From Candidatus Gottesmanbacteria bacterium (GTDB lineage: Bacteria > Patescibacteriota > Microgenomatia > UBA10105 > UBA927): DNA of 56,822 bases. Position numbers and translations under genes: made by a program. The stretch lies in the NCBI GenBank assembly GCA_963809665.1, contig CAWEKC010000002.1, forward strand, positions 1 through 56,822. The letters run 5' to 3'. The notes beneath the pieces are model-generated. The model did not search any database. It saw only the letters and a program-made list of their open reading frames with translations, and had not been told where the DNA came from. Of this stretch, positions 5,229 through 19,793 are shown one piece after another (position 1 is the stretch's first letter; each line of letters begins with the position of its first letter).

Positions 5229-5849
5229 ATGAACACCGAACGGGGCAGGCTCTATAACGTGGAAGGACTGGATGCGGCGGGAAAATCAACACTGGCTAAG
5301 GAATTACAGAAGAAATTTGACGGTGTTATGACATACAGCCCGCCGGACTGGATGAGACCGTACCGGACGTTTTCAACAACTCGCCAGCCGATATTCGGTT
5401 CCTGTATTATGCGTATAGTAATTTCTGGGTTGACAGGGTTATGGTACGTCCTCTTTTGGAACGTGACGGGAGATATGTATTCCAGGACCGGACATGGCTG
5501 ACGACGTTATCCGCACATGAAGATATGGGAACATCACGTATTCTGCTTCGGCTCGGATTAACAGCTCGCGAAAGCCGCAACCCGTCCCGATATCGCCTTT
5601 ATTATTCACGTTGATAACGCGGAAAGACGGCAGAGAATGATGAGCAGGAATGTGATTACCCCTGATGATATTACCAGTCTTGAAAACCAGGATGAAATGG
5701 AAAAAAGTCTGGTGTCATGGGTCGGTCGTCTCGGGTGGAAGACGGTTATCTTTGATAATTCGCACTTCACGCCCGATCAGGCGCGGGAGGAGTTAGTGCG
5801 GTATATCAGTGACAGAAATCTTAAAACGATCCCGGTAAAACCTCTTTGA
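5229..5849 (+). CDS. Nucleoside monophosphate kinase of the thymidylate kinase family, CMPK2-like (about 206 aa after fixing two compensating indels)
   Basis: P-loop EGLDAAGKST; SPP..MRPYRTFF..SP; DRTW motif in the shifted frame (5374-5560); RPD..FIIHV...ERRQR. One T is missing in TTTT 5370-5373 and there is one extra base near 5561. Confidence 0.8.
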
Positions 5850-6333
5850 TTGATATGTGTTGGGACTGACCCTTCGGTATATGGTATTCGACATTATCCC
5901 CTGCGTGCTTCCCCAGAAGCATCGTTCCTAACGGCGATTCATAGGAAATCCACCCCTGTTTGTTCTGAGACGCATCATCGGGGCCCAACAGGGTGAATGT
6001 TTCGTCTTCAGTCTCACCGGCAAACCTCACTGTAATCGTATTTCCGACGCCGATGGTATCTATTTGTTTGCGCGGCTCAATGATGGTCACGTCATAGAGC
6101 TTGTCTTTAATCTCGGAAAGCATCCGCGACGCCAGATCTGCCTGCCTCGATGCTTCTTCATACGCAAAGTTGTCATGGTATTCGTCGCCTTTCTCGATTG
6201 CCGCGCCCATTTCCAGCTGGAATCGTTTGTGTTGTTCCTGAAGCTGTGACAGCCGCTGCTCAAGGGCATCTTTGGTAAATTGCGTCATCAAACGGGATCC
6301 GGTACGGTTTTCCTGTTCAAATTTGTTATTCAT
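5821..6333 (-). CDS. greA: GreA/GreB-family transcript cleavage factor
   Basis: N-terminal coiled coil with acidic tip GDEYHDNFAY; C-terminal IS..SPLG..LLGK..GD motif; SD GGAGGG at 6339-6344; ATG at 6333 overlaps the PfkB stop. Confidence 0.85.
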   Translation of the reverse strand: MNNKFEQENRTGSRLMTQFTKDALEQRLSQLQEQHKRFQLEMGAAIEKGDEYHDNFAYEEASRQADLASRMLSEIKDKLYDVTIIEPRKQIDTIGVGNTITVRFAGETEDETFTLLGPDDASQNKQGWISYESPLGTMLLGKHAGDNVEYHIPKGQSQHISIKEVLPGSF

Positions 6334-7138
6334 AATCACCCTCCGATGTTATATGCTCCACGCCGAATGCCGAGACGGAAAGGGAAGCCAGGTTGACTGC
6401 CTTTTCCAGTGCGGTTTCCACAGGGACTCCTTTCGCACGCTGTGCTAAAAACGCACCGGCAAGTACGTCACCTGCGCCTGTAGTCTCAACGGAAGCAACA
6501 ACCGGCGCCGGTATCATTATTATATCGTTCCCGTGAATATATTCTGCACCGGATTTTCCTTTTTTAAGGACAATCGGTGTATCAAATACCGTCTCACCAA
6601 GCTCACGGACTATATTAAATTCCGCCTCGTTCGCAAATATCAACGAAGCTTTCCGGAACATCTGCTTTGTTAAATCCGGAAATTTTTCGACGAATTCCTC
6701 AAAACTATCAACGGAAACATGTGTATGGCCGGATAACATCTCCAGCCATGTTAAAGCATGTTCCGGCAATTGCGTCGGCAGATGGATAAATTTTGCAGAT
6801 ACATATGCATCAGGGAATATCGCTGTCTCTACAATCCCCGCCACGCCCCTTTGAGCCGCAAATTCTCTCGTATTATCCGGGTGCTGCGTTATAACAAACC
6901 TGCACGTTGCTCCGTTCTCCTTTATACGGATCCCTTCGATATCAATACCTTTCTGCGTAAGTACTGTTGTATCAAAATCCCTGCCGATCTTTGCCACCAC
7001 ACCCACTTTATCACTGTAGCGTGACGCCCCGACCGCAGCATAATACGCGGCCCCGCCGGGTGAAACTTTGCTTCCCGAGGGCGTAATGTCCTCATTCCAT
7101 GCAACATCGCCGATAATCGCAACATCCAGCTCTCTCAT
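6326..7138 (-). CDS. PfkB/ribokinase-family kinase (possible nucleoside kinase)
   Basis: PGGAAYYAA N-terminal motif, NEAE, and ETTGAGD anion-hole signature with the catalytic Asp; ATGA overlap with the RNR stop. Confidence 0.9.
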   Translation of the reverse strand: MRELDVAIIGDVAWNEDITPSGSKVSPGGAAYYAAVGASRYSDKVGVVAKIGRDFDTTVLTQKGIDIEGIRIKENGATCRFVITQHPDNTREFAAQRGVAGIVETAIFPDAYVSAKFIHLPTQLPEHALTWLEMLSGHTHVSVDSFEEFVEKFPDLTKQMFRKASLIFANEAEFNIVRELGETVFDTPIVLKKGKSGAEYIHGNDIIMIPAPVVASVETTGAGDVLAGAFLAQRAKGVPVETALEKAVNLASLSVSAFGVEHITSEGDYE

Positions 7139-8839
7139 AATTGTATTGGTTGGTTAATCTGACTTCCGTCCCTGTACACGGTAATGTTTTTTAATCCCAT
7201 GCCGTGCGCGTTGATAAAAATATCCAGAACATCCTGCACCGAAGCCGTTGACGGTAAATTCACTGTTTTGGAAACGGCTTCGTCATAGACGCTGCTTACT
7301 GCGGCAACCATTTTCAGCTGATCGATGGACTGATATCTCTTTAACTGTTTTAAGTACATCTTTGTCCGGGAGTGATCCGTTTTGAAACGTTCCACACGCC
7401 TGCGCCTGTTTCATGACACCGGAACTTTCATCGCCGGTCCTCTGCCGTACAAACGATTCTATGACTTTCCGGGTTTCATCGTTCAGTCTGTGCAAAGAAA
7501 ACAGCGGTTCTATGCTCGACGTTACTCCCAAAAGAATTGACGTCCTTCCTGTGGGTGGCAACGTCGTCGTCAATATATTTCTCAGGTATCCGGTATTCTT
7601 AATATACGCGGCGAACGATTCCCATGCCTCACGCGATACGGATTCAGTCGGATTGGCAGCATACCGGGACTCGATAAATCCGTTATAATATTTATTATTC
7701 TCCCGATCGGACATCGCACCGCACGACCCGCGATGCTCCGCCAGTCTCACTGATGCAACTTTCGATGAATAATTTATTGATGCAAGAATATTTTGCGCCG
7801 TTAGTCTTCCTTTGTCGGAATCGTAGGGTATTCCCAACTGAATAAGAGTATCCGCGAGTCCGCATACCCCGATACCGATTTTCCGTTTTAACGTTGCGAG
7901 ACGTTGACTCTCCTCATCGGGAAAGCCATTCCGGCTTATTTCTATTGCGTTATCAAGCGCTCTCACCATAACCGCCGTTGCCTCTGACAATTTTGTATAA
8001 TCCACTCCATCCTGTTTCACGAATTTTAACAGATTTATGTATCCGAATTGGCAGGTTTCTCCCGGGGCTAAACCCATCTCGGAACACGGAGGTGTTGACG
8101 TATATGAACTGATGGTTTTAATCGGATTATCCCTGTTCATCCGTTCCAAAGAAATAAGGCCCGGATCTCCGTTGTGATGCGCACACTGGGCCATTTCCTC
8201 CAATAATCCATAGGCATCTATATTTGTACCGTCCGACAATCTATATGATCTATGCTCCGTTGCGGATGCCATAAAGTCTTCGCTGACATCCACAGAAATA
8301 TTGAAGTGCTTCATGGATGAGTCTCTTTTCGCCCGGATAAACTCCCTGATCCGGGGATGGGAAACATGCAGGCTTCCCATATTGCCTATATACCTGTCAT
8401 ACAGTCCGGTTGCAGTTTCATTCGCTGAAAGTTCGTTTAACCAATGCAGGAGGCCGACGGGATCTTCGTATGATGTAAAATCAAATCCGGATCCCATATT
8501 TTGTCTGTAATACTTCCGTATTTTGACCGCTGCATCATCAAGTTTTCGTAAATCAACGGGTATTACGACGCAGGATGACAATGCGGCGTGAGAATATTCC
8601 GGTCTCCCTGCGTTGGTAAGCGTCGGTGTTCCGGGAGAAAGCGCACCTTCAAGCATATAACTGGCAAATAGGTCTTTGTTTCCCTGCGTTTCCCACTGAT
8701 CAATACCCCATGAAGATTCAACGGAAAACAGCGTGTGTACGACACGCTCAAACATATGCTGAGGTGTTTCTTCGGGGGCTAAAATTTTCCCTCCGGCTAA
8801 CATTTTAGTTACCCGTTGGGAAATTTCGAATTCTTTCAT
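7135..8839 (-). CDS. nrdJ: Divergent class II (B12-type, NrdJ-like) ribonucleotide reductase, about 567 aa after removing one extra base near 7327
   Basis: PTLTNAG, LSSC, NMG.L.V.HP.I.EFI.AK, FNISV, GDPG, PPCSE, ETC.FG.INL, RKIGIGVCGLAD, PTG..SI, SSIEP; C-terminal AVSKTVNLP and GLKNITVYRDGS. No class I Tyr-Tyr pair, no ATP cone. Confidence 0.85.
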
Positions 8840-8887: not shown

Positions 8888-8916
8888 ATAATACCTTCCA
8901 AACACAACTATGTCAA
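8888..8916 (-). promoter_or_regulatory. Near-consensus sigma70 promoter of the nrdJ-like/pfkB/gre operon
   Basis: TTGACA (8916-8911), 17-nt spacer, TATTAT (8893-8888), about 50 nt upstream of the ATG at 8839. Confidence 0.8.
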
Positions 8917-8953: not shown

Positions 8954-10084
8954 TTAACTTCTCTGCCTCAGGAAGGCGGGGATATCGAATTCGTCCTCTT
9001 CCGGCGGCAGCTCATCGTTTTTTATCGGCGGCGGGGGAGCCTGGTTGGACGTCTGGGCTACATGCGTCTGCGTCGGCTGGGCCATGGTACTGTAGCTGGG
9101 TTGGCCGGATAACTCCCGTAAACGTTTTTTTGTCTCGTCAAAGCCGGTTGCAATCACGGCAATCTTCACCTGATCCACCATATTCTGGTCAATGGTTGCG
9201 CCGAAAATTATATTGGCGTCCGGATCAACGGCGGAAGCAATTTGTTTTGCAGCCTCATCCACTTCGGCCATTGTAAGGTCCGGCCCTCCGGTTATATTGA
9301 ATAAGACTCCCTTTGCCCCTTCAATAGAAATCTCAAGAAGCGGCGATGCAATAGCAGTACGGGCGGCCGTTGCAGCCCTGTTTTCCCCGACACCGGTCCC
9401 GATACCCATAAGGGAACTTCCCGCATTGGTCATAATTGTCCGTACATCGGCAAAATCCACATTGATGAGGCCGGGCATCGTGATAAGATCGGCAATACCC
9501 TGCACCCCTTGGCCCAAAACCGAATCCGTCACACGGAATGCGTCCAAAAGCGTCATTTTTTTATCAATGACTTCCATAAGCCGCTGGTTGGGAATGACAA
9601 TAAGCGTATCCACTTTATCTTTGAGGTTCATGATGCCTTCTTCCGCAGTCACCATGCGTCTCGTACCTTCAAAATGGAACGGTTTCGTAACAACGGCGAT
9701 AGTGAGGGCCCCTAATTCTTTAGCAAGTTCCGCGATAATCGGCGTGGCCCCTGTTCCCGTGCCACCCCCTTCACCGCAGGTAAGAAATACCATGTCCGCA
9801 TCGCGCAGGTATTCCTTGAGTTTTTCGCGCGATTCTTCCGCGGCTTGTTTCCCTATTTCCGGATCGCCGCCTGCCCCGAGCCCGCGGGTGAGATTTTCTC
9901 CGATCTGTACTTTCGTCGACGCCTGGCAGGTAAGTAACGCCTGTGCGTCCGTATTGAGTCCCACAAAATCCACGCCTTTTATCTGGCTGCCGATAATCAT
10001 GGAGTTTATGGCATTGCAGCCGCCGCCGCCGATACCGATGACTTTAATTTTGGCAAACCGCGCAATGTCTGGTTTTATAAGCAT
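8954..10084 (-). CDS. ftsZ: Cell division protein FtsZ
   Basis: GGGTGTG tubulin motif, NVDFADV, C-terminal DIPAFLR peptide. Confidence 0.99.
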
Positions 10085-10126
10085 AAGACCGTTTGGGGGC
10101 AGAAGAATAATTGCGGCAGATTTATT

Positions 10127-11437
10127 TCAGGGCATGAATGACTTTACCAGATCAATGACCTTCCCTGCAAGTCCCTTAATCTGAACCTTCTCTCTTATTT
10201 TTCCGAAACCTCTGAACATACTTCCCGACTCACCCGGTTCTCCCCGTGCGCCGAATAATATAAGTCCGACGCTTGCTGCATACGCGGGGGTCATTATTTC
10301 ATCAACCAGTCCGGTAATTTTCTTCGGCTCTCCGATATGAACCGGCATGGCAAGGTTGCGGCGAGCCGCCTCAACGGCTCCGACCGTCAGTGCTCCCCCG
10401 CCGGTGAGTACGATTCCCGACGGTGTCATCCCGCCGAAACCGCTCCGTTTAATTTCGAGTCCCACCATGGTGAATATTTCGTTTAATCTCGGTTTGATAA
10501 TTCCCTCGACGAGTGTTTTGCGTGACAGCATCCGCAACTCTTCCGGTAGTCCTAAACCGGATACATCCAACTCGTCGCCCTTTTCTCCTTTAACCGTTTT
10601 TACCCCCGCCATCGGTTGATCATCATCGGGGACCGCAGGGATACGCGGAGCCTTTCCCAATAACAGTTTAATTTTTTCCGCGCTTTCCAGAGATACTCTC
10701 AGCCCTGCCGCCAGATCTTTGGTAATGTTTATAGCACCGATCGGTATCACGGATGAATAAGACAACGCACCTTCAACAAAAATCGCTACGTCGGTTGTCC
10801 CGCCCCCGATATCGATAAGTACGACCCCCAATTCCTTTTCCGTATCCGTTATGGTTGCAATACTTGATGCCAGGCCGCCGAACGCCATGCCTTCCACTTC
10901 AACCCCCAGTTCCTCCACGCATTTACGCAAATTGCGGGTCGCCGTGGCGCCCCCGGTAACCAGGTGCGTATCAACCTCGAGTCTCACGCCGGTCATGCCT
11001 ATCGGGTCTACAACCCCTTCCTGACTGTCCACGACATATCCCCGCGGCAGCACGTGAAGAATTTCTCGAGATGACGGAAGTGATACGGCTTTTGCCGCTT
11101 CGATTACCCGTTTAACATCGCTCTCTGATATTTCCTTGTCGGGCTCTGATACCGCAACAACCCCGTGGGAGTTTTGCGATGCAATATGCGCGCCTCCGAC
11201 CAATAAAAACGCCCGTGCGACCTGGGTGCCGGCCATTCGCTCGGCTGCTTCCAGGGATCCGGAAATTGCAACAGTTGCTTCCTCAATATTGACCACCTGG
11301 CCCTTCCGCAGGCCGCGGCTGGGTACCGAAGAAACGCCGATAACACGAGCGTCCCCTTCTTCGGGAACAGTCGCGATGAGGGTCGTAATCTTACTGGTTC
11401 CGACATCTATGCCGGATACTATGTGGTCTCGCGCCAT
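10127..11437 (-). CDS. ftsA: Cell division protein FtsA
   Basis: GIDVGTSK, IDIGGGTTD, VLTGGGA actin-like motifs; upstream of ftsZ. Confidence 0.98.
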   Translation of the reverse strand: MARDHIVSGIDVGTSKITTLIATVPEEGDARVIGVSSVPSRGLRKGQVVNIEEATVAISGSLEAAERMAGTQVARAFLLVGGAHIASQNSHGVVAVSEPDKEISESDVKRVIEAAKAVSLPSSREILHVLPRGYVVDSQEGVVDPIGMTGVRLEVDTHLVTGGATATRNLRKCVEELGVEVEGMAFGGLASSIATITDTEKELGVVLIDIGGGTTDVAIFVEGALSYSSVIPIGAINITKDLAAGLRVSLESAEKIKLLLGKAPRIPAVPDDDQPMAGVKTVKGEKGDELDVSGLGLPEELRMLSRKTLVEGIIKPRLNEIFTMVGLEIKRSGFGGMTPSGIVLTGGGALTVGAVEAARRNLAMPVHIGEPKKITGLVDEIMTPAYAASVGLILFGARGEPGESGSMFRGFGKIREKVQIKGLAGKVIDLVKSFMP

Positions 11438-11439
11438 AA

Positions 11440-12144
11440 CTAAAATTTTAATATTGGTTTGTTAAACCGCAGATCAATAAACGTGGGCAGTGTACCTTTT
11501 ATTCTAAACCCCGCAAGAAGCGTTTGTAAAGTAGCCAGTACCGTGGCAGTGGGCGCGTCCTGAGGAAAAATTATATCTAGTTTGCCGCTTTTGGCCCGTA
11601 ATGACCGGTCGTCTTCAACCGAAACTTCGCTCACCGGCAGGATACCGCGCATACCCGTTATAAAGGCTATACCGGCGGTAACCCGCGGGTCAGAAATTTT
11701 TTCACCGATACGAACGACCGGGATTGCTACGACAAGACGGGGGAGTTCCATTGACCCGGAACCGGTATCCCCCAACACCACAGCGCCGGCATCCACCAGT
11801 ACATCGCGCGCCGGAAGAATCAAACGGACAACAGCAGAGCGCAGCGTAGGCATAATTACCAAAGTATGAGGATATTTTATTTGAAACTGGATATCGGCAA
11901 GTATGGGATTGTCTTCCAGAAGTTGCGTCCGGAGTTTTGAAGCAGGAAACAATAATAACGTTTTCGGTAACCTCCCTTCATCAACCTCAACGCGGATATT
12001 ATTCCCGACAACGACAATATTGTTAATGGTAAATATTTTTATGCAGGTCCAATAGACCGCACCGGAAAACAATAGAAACATTACAACGAATCCCACCGCT
12101 CTTCCGAATTTTCTTAAAAAAATAGACCGTTTGGATTTTATCAT
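11440..12144 (-). CDS. ftsQ: FtsQ/DivIB-like cell division protein
   Basis: Basic N-terminus, single TM, POTRA-like region, C-terminal IDLRF..P; position between murG and ftsA. Confidence 0.8.
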   Translation of the reverse strand: MIKSKRSIFLRKFGRAVGFVVMFLLFSGAVYWTCIKIFTINNIVVVGNNIRVEVDEGRLPKTLLLFPASKLRTQLLEDNPILADIQFQIKYPHTLVIMPTLRSAVVRLILPARDVLVDAGAVVLGDTGSGSMELPRLVVAIPVVRIGEKISDPRVTAGIAFITGMRGILPVSEVSVEDDRSLRAKSGKLDIIFPQDAPTATVLATLQTLLAGFRIKGTLPTFIDLRFNKPILKF

Positions 12145-18915: not shown

Positions 18916-19254
18916 TTATTGTACCAGGCTGTGTAAAATCGTGGTTATGACGGAGAAAAGTATGGATCCCAATAGTGCGGTGAGGAACCCGTCGATTTTG
19001 AATCCCGGCGTCAGGGCACTGGCGAGCATAAGCATGAGCGCGTTCAGGACTAATGCAAAAAGTCCGAATGTGATAATGGTTACGGGAAGCGTCAGCAGAA
19101 AAAGAAGCGGTTTAATAAGAGCATTCACAAAACCGATGACAACGACGGCTATCAAAGCACTTCCGAAATCTAACAGGTGAATACCCGGCAAAATCTTTGC
19201 GACAATATACAGGGCGAGCGCATTGAGAACCCAGCGGACGAGTATGCTTATCAT
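18916..19254 (-). CDS. YvlD-like 4-TM membrane protein (phage holin 4_2 family)
   Basis: NALIKP.L.LLTLP..I.T.GLF..V.NA motif; 112 aa. Confidence 0.85.
   Translation of the reverse strand: MISILVRWVLNALALYIVAKILPGIHLLDFGSALIAVVVIGFVNALIKPLLFLLTLPVTIITFGLFALVLNALMLMLASALTPGFKIDGFLTALLGSILFSVITTILHSLVQ
18918..18926 (-). promoter_or_regulatory. Extended -10 (TGgTACAAT) 7 nt before the femABX-like ATG
   Basis: Built from the last codons and stop of the upstream gene (GTA CAA TAA). Confidence 0.55.
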
Positions 19255-19793
19255 AGAGAAAACTCCTTTCCGTGACCCGGCAGAATCCGGGTATCTTTCG
19301 GGAACGACATAATTTTTTTAAGTGATACCGTAAGCTTCTGCCGATCGGAGTAGGAAAAATCCGTTCTTCCCACGCCGTTAGCAAACATAGTGTCTCCCAC
19401 AACGAGTATATCATTGAACTGCAAACAGATACTACCCGGTGTATGTCCGGGCGTGTGAATAAACGGCAGATTTCCAATTTTCGACGGTACCGGCGGCGGA
19501 TCAATTTCTTGTATCCCGAGAAAATGTTTTGCGGACGATTGCATTCGCGAAAGGAGAAATATATCGTCATCGTGAATATAAAACGGAATATTGTACGCCA
19601 ATTGCAGCGCATATGCCGCCATAATGTGATCAAAGTGCCCGTGCGTTGCCACAATCATTGTAGGTTTGGTAGTGAGATGGGAGATTATATATTCCGCGTC
19701 ATCCCCGGGGTCAATAATGATGGATTTATTTTTATCGATTACTATATAACAATTTGTTGCCATCTGGCCGACAACAAGAGTTTCTACAGTCAT
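19251..19793 (-). CDS. MBL-fold metallo-hydrolase (glyoxalase II/YcbL-like)
   Basis: THGHFDH, HTPGHTPGS, GD, PGHG. Confidence 0.9.
   Translation of the reverse strand: MTVETLVVGQMATNCYIVIDKNKSIIIDPGDDAEYIISHLTTKPTMIVATHGHFDHIMAAYALQLAYNIPFYIHDDDIFLLSRMQSSAKHFLGIQEIDPPPVPSKIGNLPFIHTPGHTPGSICLQFNDILVVGDTMFANGVGRTDFSYSDRQKLTVSLKKIMSFPKDTRILPGHGKEFSL

Follow-up and report, generated by a model that had tools for sequence, protein, structure and literature searches.

The window, as we call the whole 56,822-nt stretch of Candidatus Gottesmanbacteria DNA analysed here, harbors on its minus strand a homologue of class II (NrdJ-type) ribonucleotide reductase (RNR) at positions 7135-8839. The gene is split into two ORFs of 518 aa (7283-8839) and 86 aa (7135-7395), and PF02867, the Pfam model for the RNR barrel, matches both halves (E-values 2.8e-55 and 2.8e-9). 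Intact relatives have 566-570 aa, the closest of them, P0002, being 80% identical. The top NCBIfam model is TIGR02504 (AdoCbl-dependent NrdJ_Z) with 276.8 + 67.4 bits for the two scored ORFs, under its cut-off of 399.95. A score of 42.4 bits for TIGR02505 (RTPR, NrdJm), which has a cut-off of 340, places the protein outside monomeric class II, and NF005401 (PRK06948, "ribonucleotide reductase-like protein") gives 119 bits vs. a cut-off of 906. Pfam returns only Ribonuc_red_lgN at the N-terminus and Ribonuc_red_lgC, in agreement with an earlier note on this DNA which had seen no ATP cone. No Rfam family, B12 riboswitch included, reaches its gathering score anywhere in the window.

For P0002, an AF2 model based on a 60-sequence alignment has a pLDDT of 94, and its best Foldseek match is Thermotoga maritima NrdJ (TM 0.85), which is the closest solved relative by both sequence and structure. 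The ten-stranded α/β barrel and the finger loop with its radical Cys, as expected for class II, are present according to PF02867, the AF2 model and the conservation of this Cys in 97 of 97 representatives of the clade described below.

The split of the gene corresponds to a +1 frameshift site with one extra base at 7322-7340 (minus strand; shift near 7325-7336), where intact relatives read KEISSIDQL or KEIPSVDQL and the window gives KEISV/HRS.. in one reading frame and ..QSIDQLKMV in the second. A tblastn search with P0002 recovers residues 1-502 in frame -2 and resumes in frame -3 from residue 496 to 567, with 76% identity over the 72 residues past the frameshift vs. 80% before it. In total, 3.7 kb of sequence contain three single-base indels with protein conservation around them: that of the RNR gene plus a compensating pair in the Tmk-like gene described below. 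Public read data include no run that contains this stretch. Judging from the sequence, these three indels are most likely assembly errors rather than decay, given that the sequence past the shift stays conserved and that several single-base indels fall in conserved genes. Programmed frameshifting was ruled out, since a slippery motif is absent and the frame is intact in all relatives. The assembly looks indel-prone, and further same-strand ORF pairs that overlap, such as 19112-19654 with 19251-19793, may also be split genes.

Immediately downstream, a PfkB-family kinase gene (6326-7138, minus strand) overlaps the RNR stop codon with its start (ATGA). It is the commonest neighbour in the family, adjacent to the RNR gene in at least 12 distinct loci, and the best NCBIfam match of its product is a weak one to ATP-dependent ribose-1-phosphate kinase (65 bits vs. 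a cut-off of 330). The kinase is translationally coupled to the RNR gene, and its orthologue in locus L005 is fused to a NUDIX domain. The same-strand run ends with a gene for a GreA-like factor (5821-6339, minus strand), which is met by a convergent Tmk-like gene of the dTMP-kinase family (5229-5849, plus strand), broken in the assembly by the two compensating frameshifts mentioned above. Both GreA and the Tmk-like kinase recur near family members. Similarly, the 80 metagenome loci of the sister branch (L034-L113) contain CYTH triphosphatase-like (25 loci), Tmk-like (23) and NUDIX (15) genes, along with two other groups of P-loop kinases (12 and 11). Neither redoxin nor cobalamin genes were among the recurrent neighbours in these 80 loci. 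Genes for nucleotide-phosphate chemistry, including members of the dTMP-kinase family, make up this neighbourhood, in keeping with deoxynucleotide supply. GreA-like genes are seen in 20-25 of the same 80 loci, a linkage without obvious metabolic reason.

Upstream of the RNR gene, a promoter-like TTGACA-17-TATTAT site (8888-8916, minus strand), a consensus match only with 11 of 12 positions, sits in the 114-nt gap after an ftsZ-like ORF. FtsZ-, FtsA- and FtsQ-like ORFs, assigned by eye from their translations, directly precede the RNR unit at 8954-12144 (minus strand).

Loops 1 and 2 and the effector site

Strand βB, a remnant of loop 1 and the start of helix αB are encoded at nt 8447-8500 (minus strand), where the earlier note had located the loop-1 motif NMGSGFDFTSYEDPVGLL (residues 114-131); the remnant itself is TSYED (nt 8462-8476). 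When 8 family members are aligned by MAFFT with 41 proteins of the sister branch, 15 canonical NrdJ and E. coli NrdA, the family loop 1 reads FDFTPY--------------DDPVGLL, with a 14-residue gap relative to canonical NrdJ and NrdA that falls exactly in loop 1. About 17 effector-binding residues had been thought to be gone: the deletion of loop 1 holds, with its size corrected to 14 residues. The stretch from βB to αB counts 16 residues here and 30 in 40 out of 50 canonical (Asn-bearing) representatives, the others presenting either intein-sized inserts (8/50) or short loops of 18-19 residues (2/50). Structure prediction also shows the shortened βB-αB join: the AF2 model of P0002 leaves only 6 residues between the strand at 116-120 and the helix at 127-143.

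The deletion is found in 60/60 aligned family members and in all asparagine-less clade representatives covering the region. No intact effector site is recovered in the alignment. Chance loss of loop 1 was ruled out by the deletion across the 60 family members and 97 representatives, and an alignment artefact by the agreement of an HMM alignment and the AF2 secondary structure with three independent MAFFT runs.

In characterized enzymes, the 3′-OH of the effector ribose is contacted by Asp232 and His275 in E. coli (Ec) and by Asp141 in T. maritima (Tm), and the effector phosphates by Ec Arg262 and Arg269, by Tm Arg171 and Lys158 and by loop-1 backbone amides (Zimanyi 2016, PMC4728125). At the position of Ec Asp232/Tm Asp141 the window protein carries Leu97 (nt 8549-8551, minus strand), a Leu in 60/60 family members vs. 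an Asp in 47/50 canonical proteins, while the equivalents of Ec Arg262 (Tm Arg171), Arg269 and His275 all lie within the deletion. The dNTP specificity site of class II enzymes, made up of loop 1 with a conserved Asp and Arg, is absent. As every binding group is either replaced or deleted, the canonical effector pocket is lost and not merely altered. The predicted lack of dNTP specificity regulation in the window RNR homologue, already put forward in the earlier note, is strongly supported by the replacement or deletion of all known effector-anchor side chains; a new allosteric site may exist elsewhere in the protein.

Loop 2 is remodelled. It reads ETATGLYDRYIGNMG (residues 141-155, nt 8375-8419, minus strand), precisely as the earlier note had it, with the Arg298 equivalent kept, Gln294 replaced by Ala, an acidic residue before the Arg and two additional residues. 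The family consensus is ETATGxYDRYIGNMG, in which the equivalent of Arg298/Tm Arg207, a substrate-phosphate contact, is invariant. No segment is more conserved within the family than loop 2 (pairwise identity of 0.82 vs. 0.53 for the whole protein), and between sub-branches its conservation does not exceed that of the whole protein (0.30 vs. 0.34). Canonical NrdJ proteins share one common loop 2 (0.67 vs. 0.53), and since this loop is also highly conserved, conservation of loop 2 alone is no proof of fixed specificity. The protein had been proposed to be both unregulated and fixed in its base specificity, giving one product. The loss of regulation is well supported, as seen above; the single-base part, a fixed specificity with one product, is plausible and only indirectly suggested by loop-2 conservation.

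Active site, C-terminus and extent of the clade

The finger loop TPPCSEMG (nt 8072-8095, minus strand) keeps the thiyl Cys and the Glu, and has a Pro in place of the catalytic Asn (Ec Asn437), as do 58 of 60 family members. By alignment, the first redox Cys (Ec Cys225) is found in LSSCVVIPV (nt 8543-8581, minus strand) and the second (Ec Cys462) is kept in GETCQFGYINL (nt 8030-8062, minus strand). Apart from this Asn, the catalytic set of class II (thiyl Cys, Glu and redox Cys pair) is complete. In the E. coli enzyme, mutation of Asn437 abolishes activity. The residue contacts the substrate 3′-OH in the E. coli, yeast and T. maritima enzymes (PMC4728125).

Conservation of the remaining residues is high: the equivalents of Cys225, Cys439, Glu441, Cys462, Arg298 and Thr209 are retained in approximately 90-100% of 97 clade representatives, with the thiyl Cys present in all 97 and both bottom-face Cys plus the Glu in at least 94. 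These alignments show strong selection to keep the residues of the substrate side and of the radical chemistry, the Asn excepted. New conserved residues also appear near the active site, namely CQFGY for CNLGS, an Arg in the distal phosphate loop and the acidic residue of loop 2. The class I-type Tyr-Tyr dyad is absent.

Both phosphate loops match what the earlier note had read. The apical loop is P-G-T-P (nt 8624-8635, minus strand), that is, a hydroxyl residue followed by Pro and no Arg, which resembles the diphosphate type under the rule that P-N-S-P marks diphosphate and P-A-G-R triphosphate reducers (Schell 2021, PMC8365446). The distal loop is PPTGRTS (nt 7538-7558, minus strand), with PTGR for PTGT: beside the phosphate-binding Ser625, the position of Ec Thr624 holds an Arg in 60/60 family members, and a Thr or Ser in 50/50 canonical proteins. 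Because of this distal-loop Arg, the assignment of the substrate phosphate is a little open.

Two further regions are reduced. The class I/II β-hairpin region after strand βH (nt 7472-7519, minus strand) is ~8 residues shorter than in canonical NrdJ, and since this hairpin is linked to cofactor binding, AdoCbl is only a putative radical source. At the C-terminus, most clade members end 0-7 residues past a YRDGSxxxQPxxL motif with no Cys there, a few having longer extensions, and canonical tails contain 2-12 Cys. The C-terminal redox Cys pair or Cys-rich domain of class II is thus absent.

A profile search of 1.84 billion cluster representatives (50% identity), from which the best 150 proteins were taken, shows how far these features extend. 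The finger-loop Cys is present in 147 of them, and 97 of these 147 are without the catalytic Asn, having Ala (77), Pro (9), Ser (8) or Val (3) instead. All asparagine-less representatives covering the region have a βB-αB stretch of 16 or 17 residues, and the same proteins combine the absence of loop 1 and of the Asn with a hairpin ~8 residues shorter and, in almost all cases, no C-terminal redox Cys. In a maximum-likelihood tree from which the loop-1 columns had been removed they form a monophyletic clade (SH-aLRT 99), with the "PPC" family of the window nested inside "APC" proteins. The clade is old. Its named records belong to Gottesman-, Roizman-, Levy- and Peregrinibacteria and to the "Patescibacteria group".

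A phage origin was also considered and ruled out: family and sister branch are absent from IMG/VR, whose only matches, at 26-28% identity, are too distant for the clade.

Two other observations concern further NrdJ proteins. P0224 and P0266, which are Asn-bearing NrdJ from the representative search, have an independently shortened loop 1 (18-19 vs. 30 residues) without the effector Asp and Arg; they keep a TNPCGE active site and the tail Cys, being candidate bona fide RNRs without a specificity site. P0126 (1351 aa) and P0128 (1600 aa) each consist of two complete canonical NrdJ barrels fused in tandem, with loop-2 sequences that differ between the copies.

Proposed function and its alternatives

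The account that we prefer, and hold as a whole with moderate confidence, is that the window gene is a member of a deep, monophyletic branch of NrdJ-fold RNR homologues without a dNTP specificity site, and that its product is an unregulated enzyme of class II fold reducing a ribonucleoside diphosphate. Thiyl-radical chemistry would still be started on the ribonucleoside diphosphate, and the substrate would most likely be reduced to its deoxy form; reduction is thought the most likely outcome because both bottom-face Cys and the Glu are kept. Substrate choice would be set by a rigid loop 2 with no feedback from dNTP effectors, and the enzyme could serve in nucleotide salvage together with the kinases encoded next to it. 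As the protein has no Cys tail at its C-terminus, a redoxin or a small thiol would have to act on the active-site disulfide itself to re-reduce it, for which the thioredoxin-dependent class III enzymes are a precedent.

With the catalytic Asn and the redox tail both lost, the reading as an ordinary RNR is uncertain. It is possible, though unlikely, that the protein is no reductase and that the thiyl-radical scaffold of RNR is used for other chemistry on one nucleotide, for instance to isomerise or dehydrate it or to produce a modified nucleotide. An enzyme with just one substrate can do without a specificity site, and a redox-neutral reaction would make the reductant tail unnecessary and the Asn dispensable. 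In line with this, every member has jointly lost loop 1, the Asn, some of the β-hairpin and the Cys tail of the C-terminus; the new residues by the active site (CQFGY, the distal-loop Arg and the acidic residue of loop 2) are conserved; loop 2 varies between sub-branches; and NCBI names the members hypothetical proteins. On the other hand, the conservation of both bottom-face Cys and the Glu speaks for a reductase, as these are required for disulfide-forming reduction and otherwise unnecessary, the dTMP-kinase-family neighbours are those of deoxynucleotide supply, and neither a product nor a precedent for the alternative chemistry can be named.

Doubtful, in its strict form, is the proposal of a true RNR hard-wired for one base, which would yield one dNDP instead of balancing four. 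It draws on the absent effector site, on a loop 2 that is near-invariant in the family and specific to the sub-branch, and on the neighbouring kinases, which could make up a linear route from nucleoside to NMP, NDP and dNDP. However, the canonical loop 2 is highly conserved too, as given above, and a genome of ~1 Mb with one single-base RNR would need another origin for the remaining dNTPs; no second paralogue was noticed in the 6-10 kb flanks upon (unsystematic) inspection. Herpesvirus RNRs still reduce all four substrates, so a loss of regulation need not mean a single substrate. These viral enzymes, too, are without specificity regulation (Hofer 2012, PMC3267527). Finally, a decaying pseudogene whose odd loops reflect degeneration is improbable: the reading frame is indeed broken near residue 503 and the adjacent Tmk-like gene is broken as well, but hundreds of intact relatives conserve these very loops, conservation past the frameshift is as strong as before it and several single-base indels in conserved genes suggest assembly error.

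Whether loop 1 can be dispensed with has a wider bearing. Specificity regulation through loops 1 and 2 has been called universal in RNRs, with few herpesvirus exceptions (PMC3267527), and the loop-1 site and the β-hairpin were described as belonging to the minimal architecture shared by classes I and II (PMC9531940). Our literature search found no account of an RNR branch without loop 1 and none on CPR RNRs, and the loss of the effector site marks a large, apparently undescribed branch of the RNR family: the site is missing from at least 97 of the 150 nearest cluster representatives (50% identity), and the named records are mostly ultra-small CPR bacteria living on scavenged nucleotides. If these proteins are reductases, as we prefer to think, cells can live without balancing their dNTP pools at the level of RNR, and turnover can do without both Asn and tail; otherwise, the RNR radical scaffold has found a new use. 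Pipeline labels such as "hypothetical protein" or plain "ribonucleoside-diphosphate reductase" are both misleading, whichever reading holds. We put forward, quite tentatively, that this is a cellular branch of class II-type radical enzymes without dNTP regulation, Asn or redox tail, in which each sub-branch would be hard-wired by its loop 2 for one or a few nucleotides, amounting either to a new deoxynucleotide route in CPR bacteria or to a new radical reaction.

Comparison with known systems

The nearest known system is T. maritima NrdJ (NrdJd, PDB 1XJE/3O0N), with which the window protein shares the barrel, the Cys and Glu of the finger loop, the redox Cys pair, the loop-2 Arg (Tm Arg207), a diphosphate-like apical loop and the absence of an ATP cone. 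It differs in a loop 1 that is 14 residues shorter, in the replacement of Tm Asp141 by Leu and of Tm Asn320 by Pro, in the deletion of Tm Arg171, in a different loop 2 that is 2 residues longer, in a hairpin shortened by ~8 residues and in having no C-terminal Cys-rich domain.

As unregulated RNRs, the class I enzymes of Herpesviridae provide the functional precedent, being the only RNRs known to be without allosteric specificity regulation (Hofer 2012, PMC3267527). They are viral, need a radical-generating β subunit and belong to a lineage unrelated to the cellular, class II-like clade presented here. The class O (clade Ø) RNR α of Synechococcus phage S-CBP4 is similar in being a small α subunit with few insertions and no ATP cone, but the present clade, in contrast to this minimal RNR, is without the loop-1 site and has a shortened β-hairpin.

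NrdJm, exemplified by the L. leichmannii RTPR, is the AdoCbl-type class for comparison and, like the window protein, has no Cys-rich C-terminal domain. Its loop 1, however, is lengthened, mimics the dimer interface and keeps the specificity site, whereas the loop is deleted in the window protein, and its apical loop bears the triphosphate motif P-A/S-G-R (PMC8365446) where the window protein has PGTP. With neither the long loop-1 insertion nor the P-A/S-G-R motif, the window protein falls outside NrdJm.
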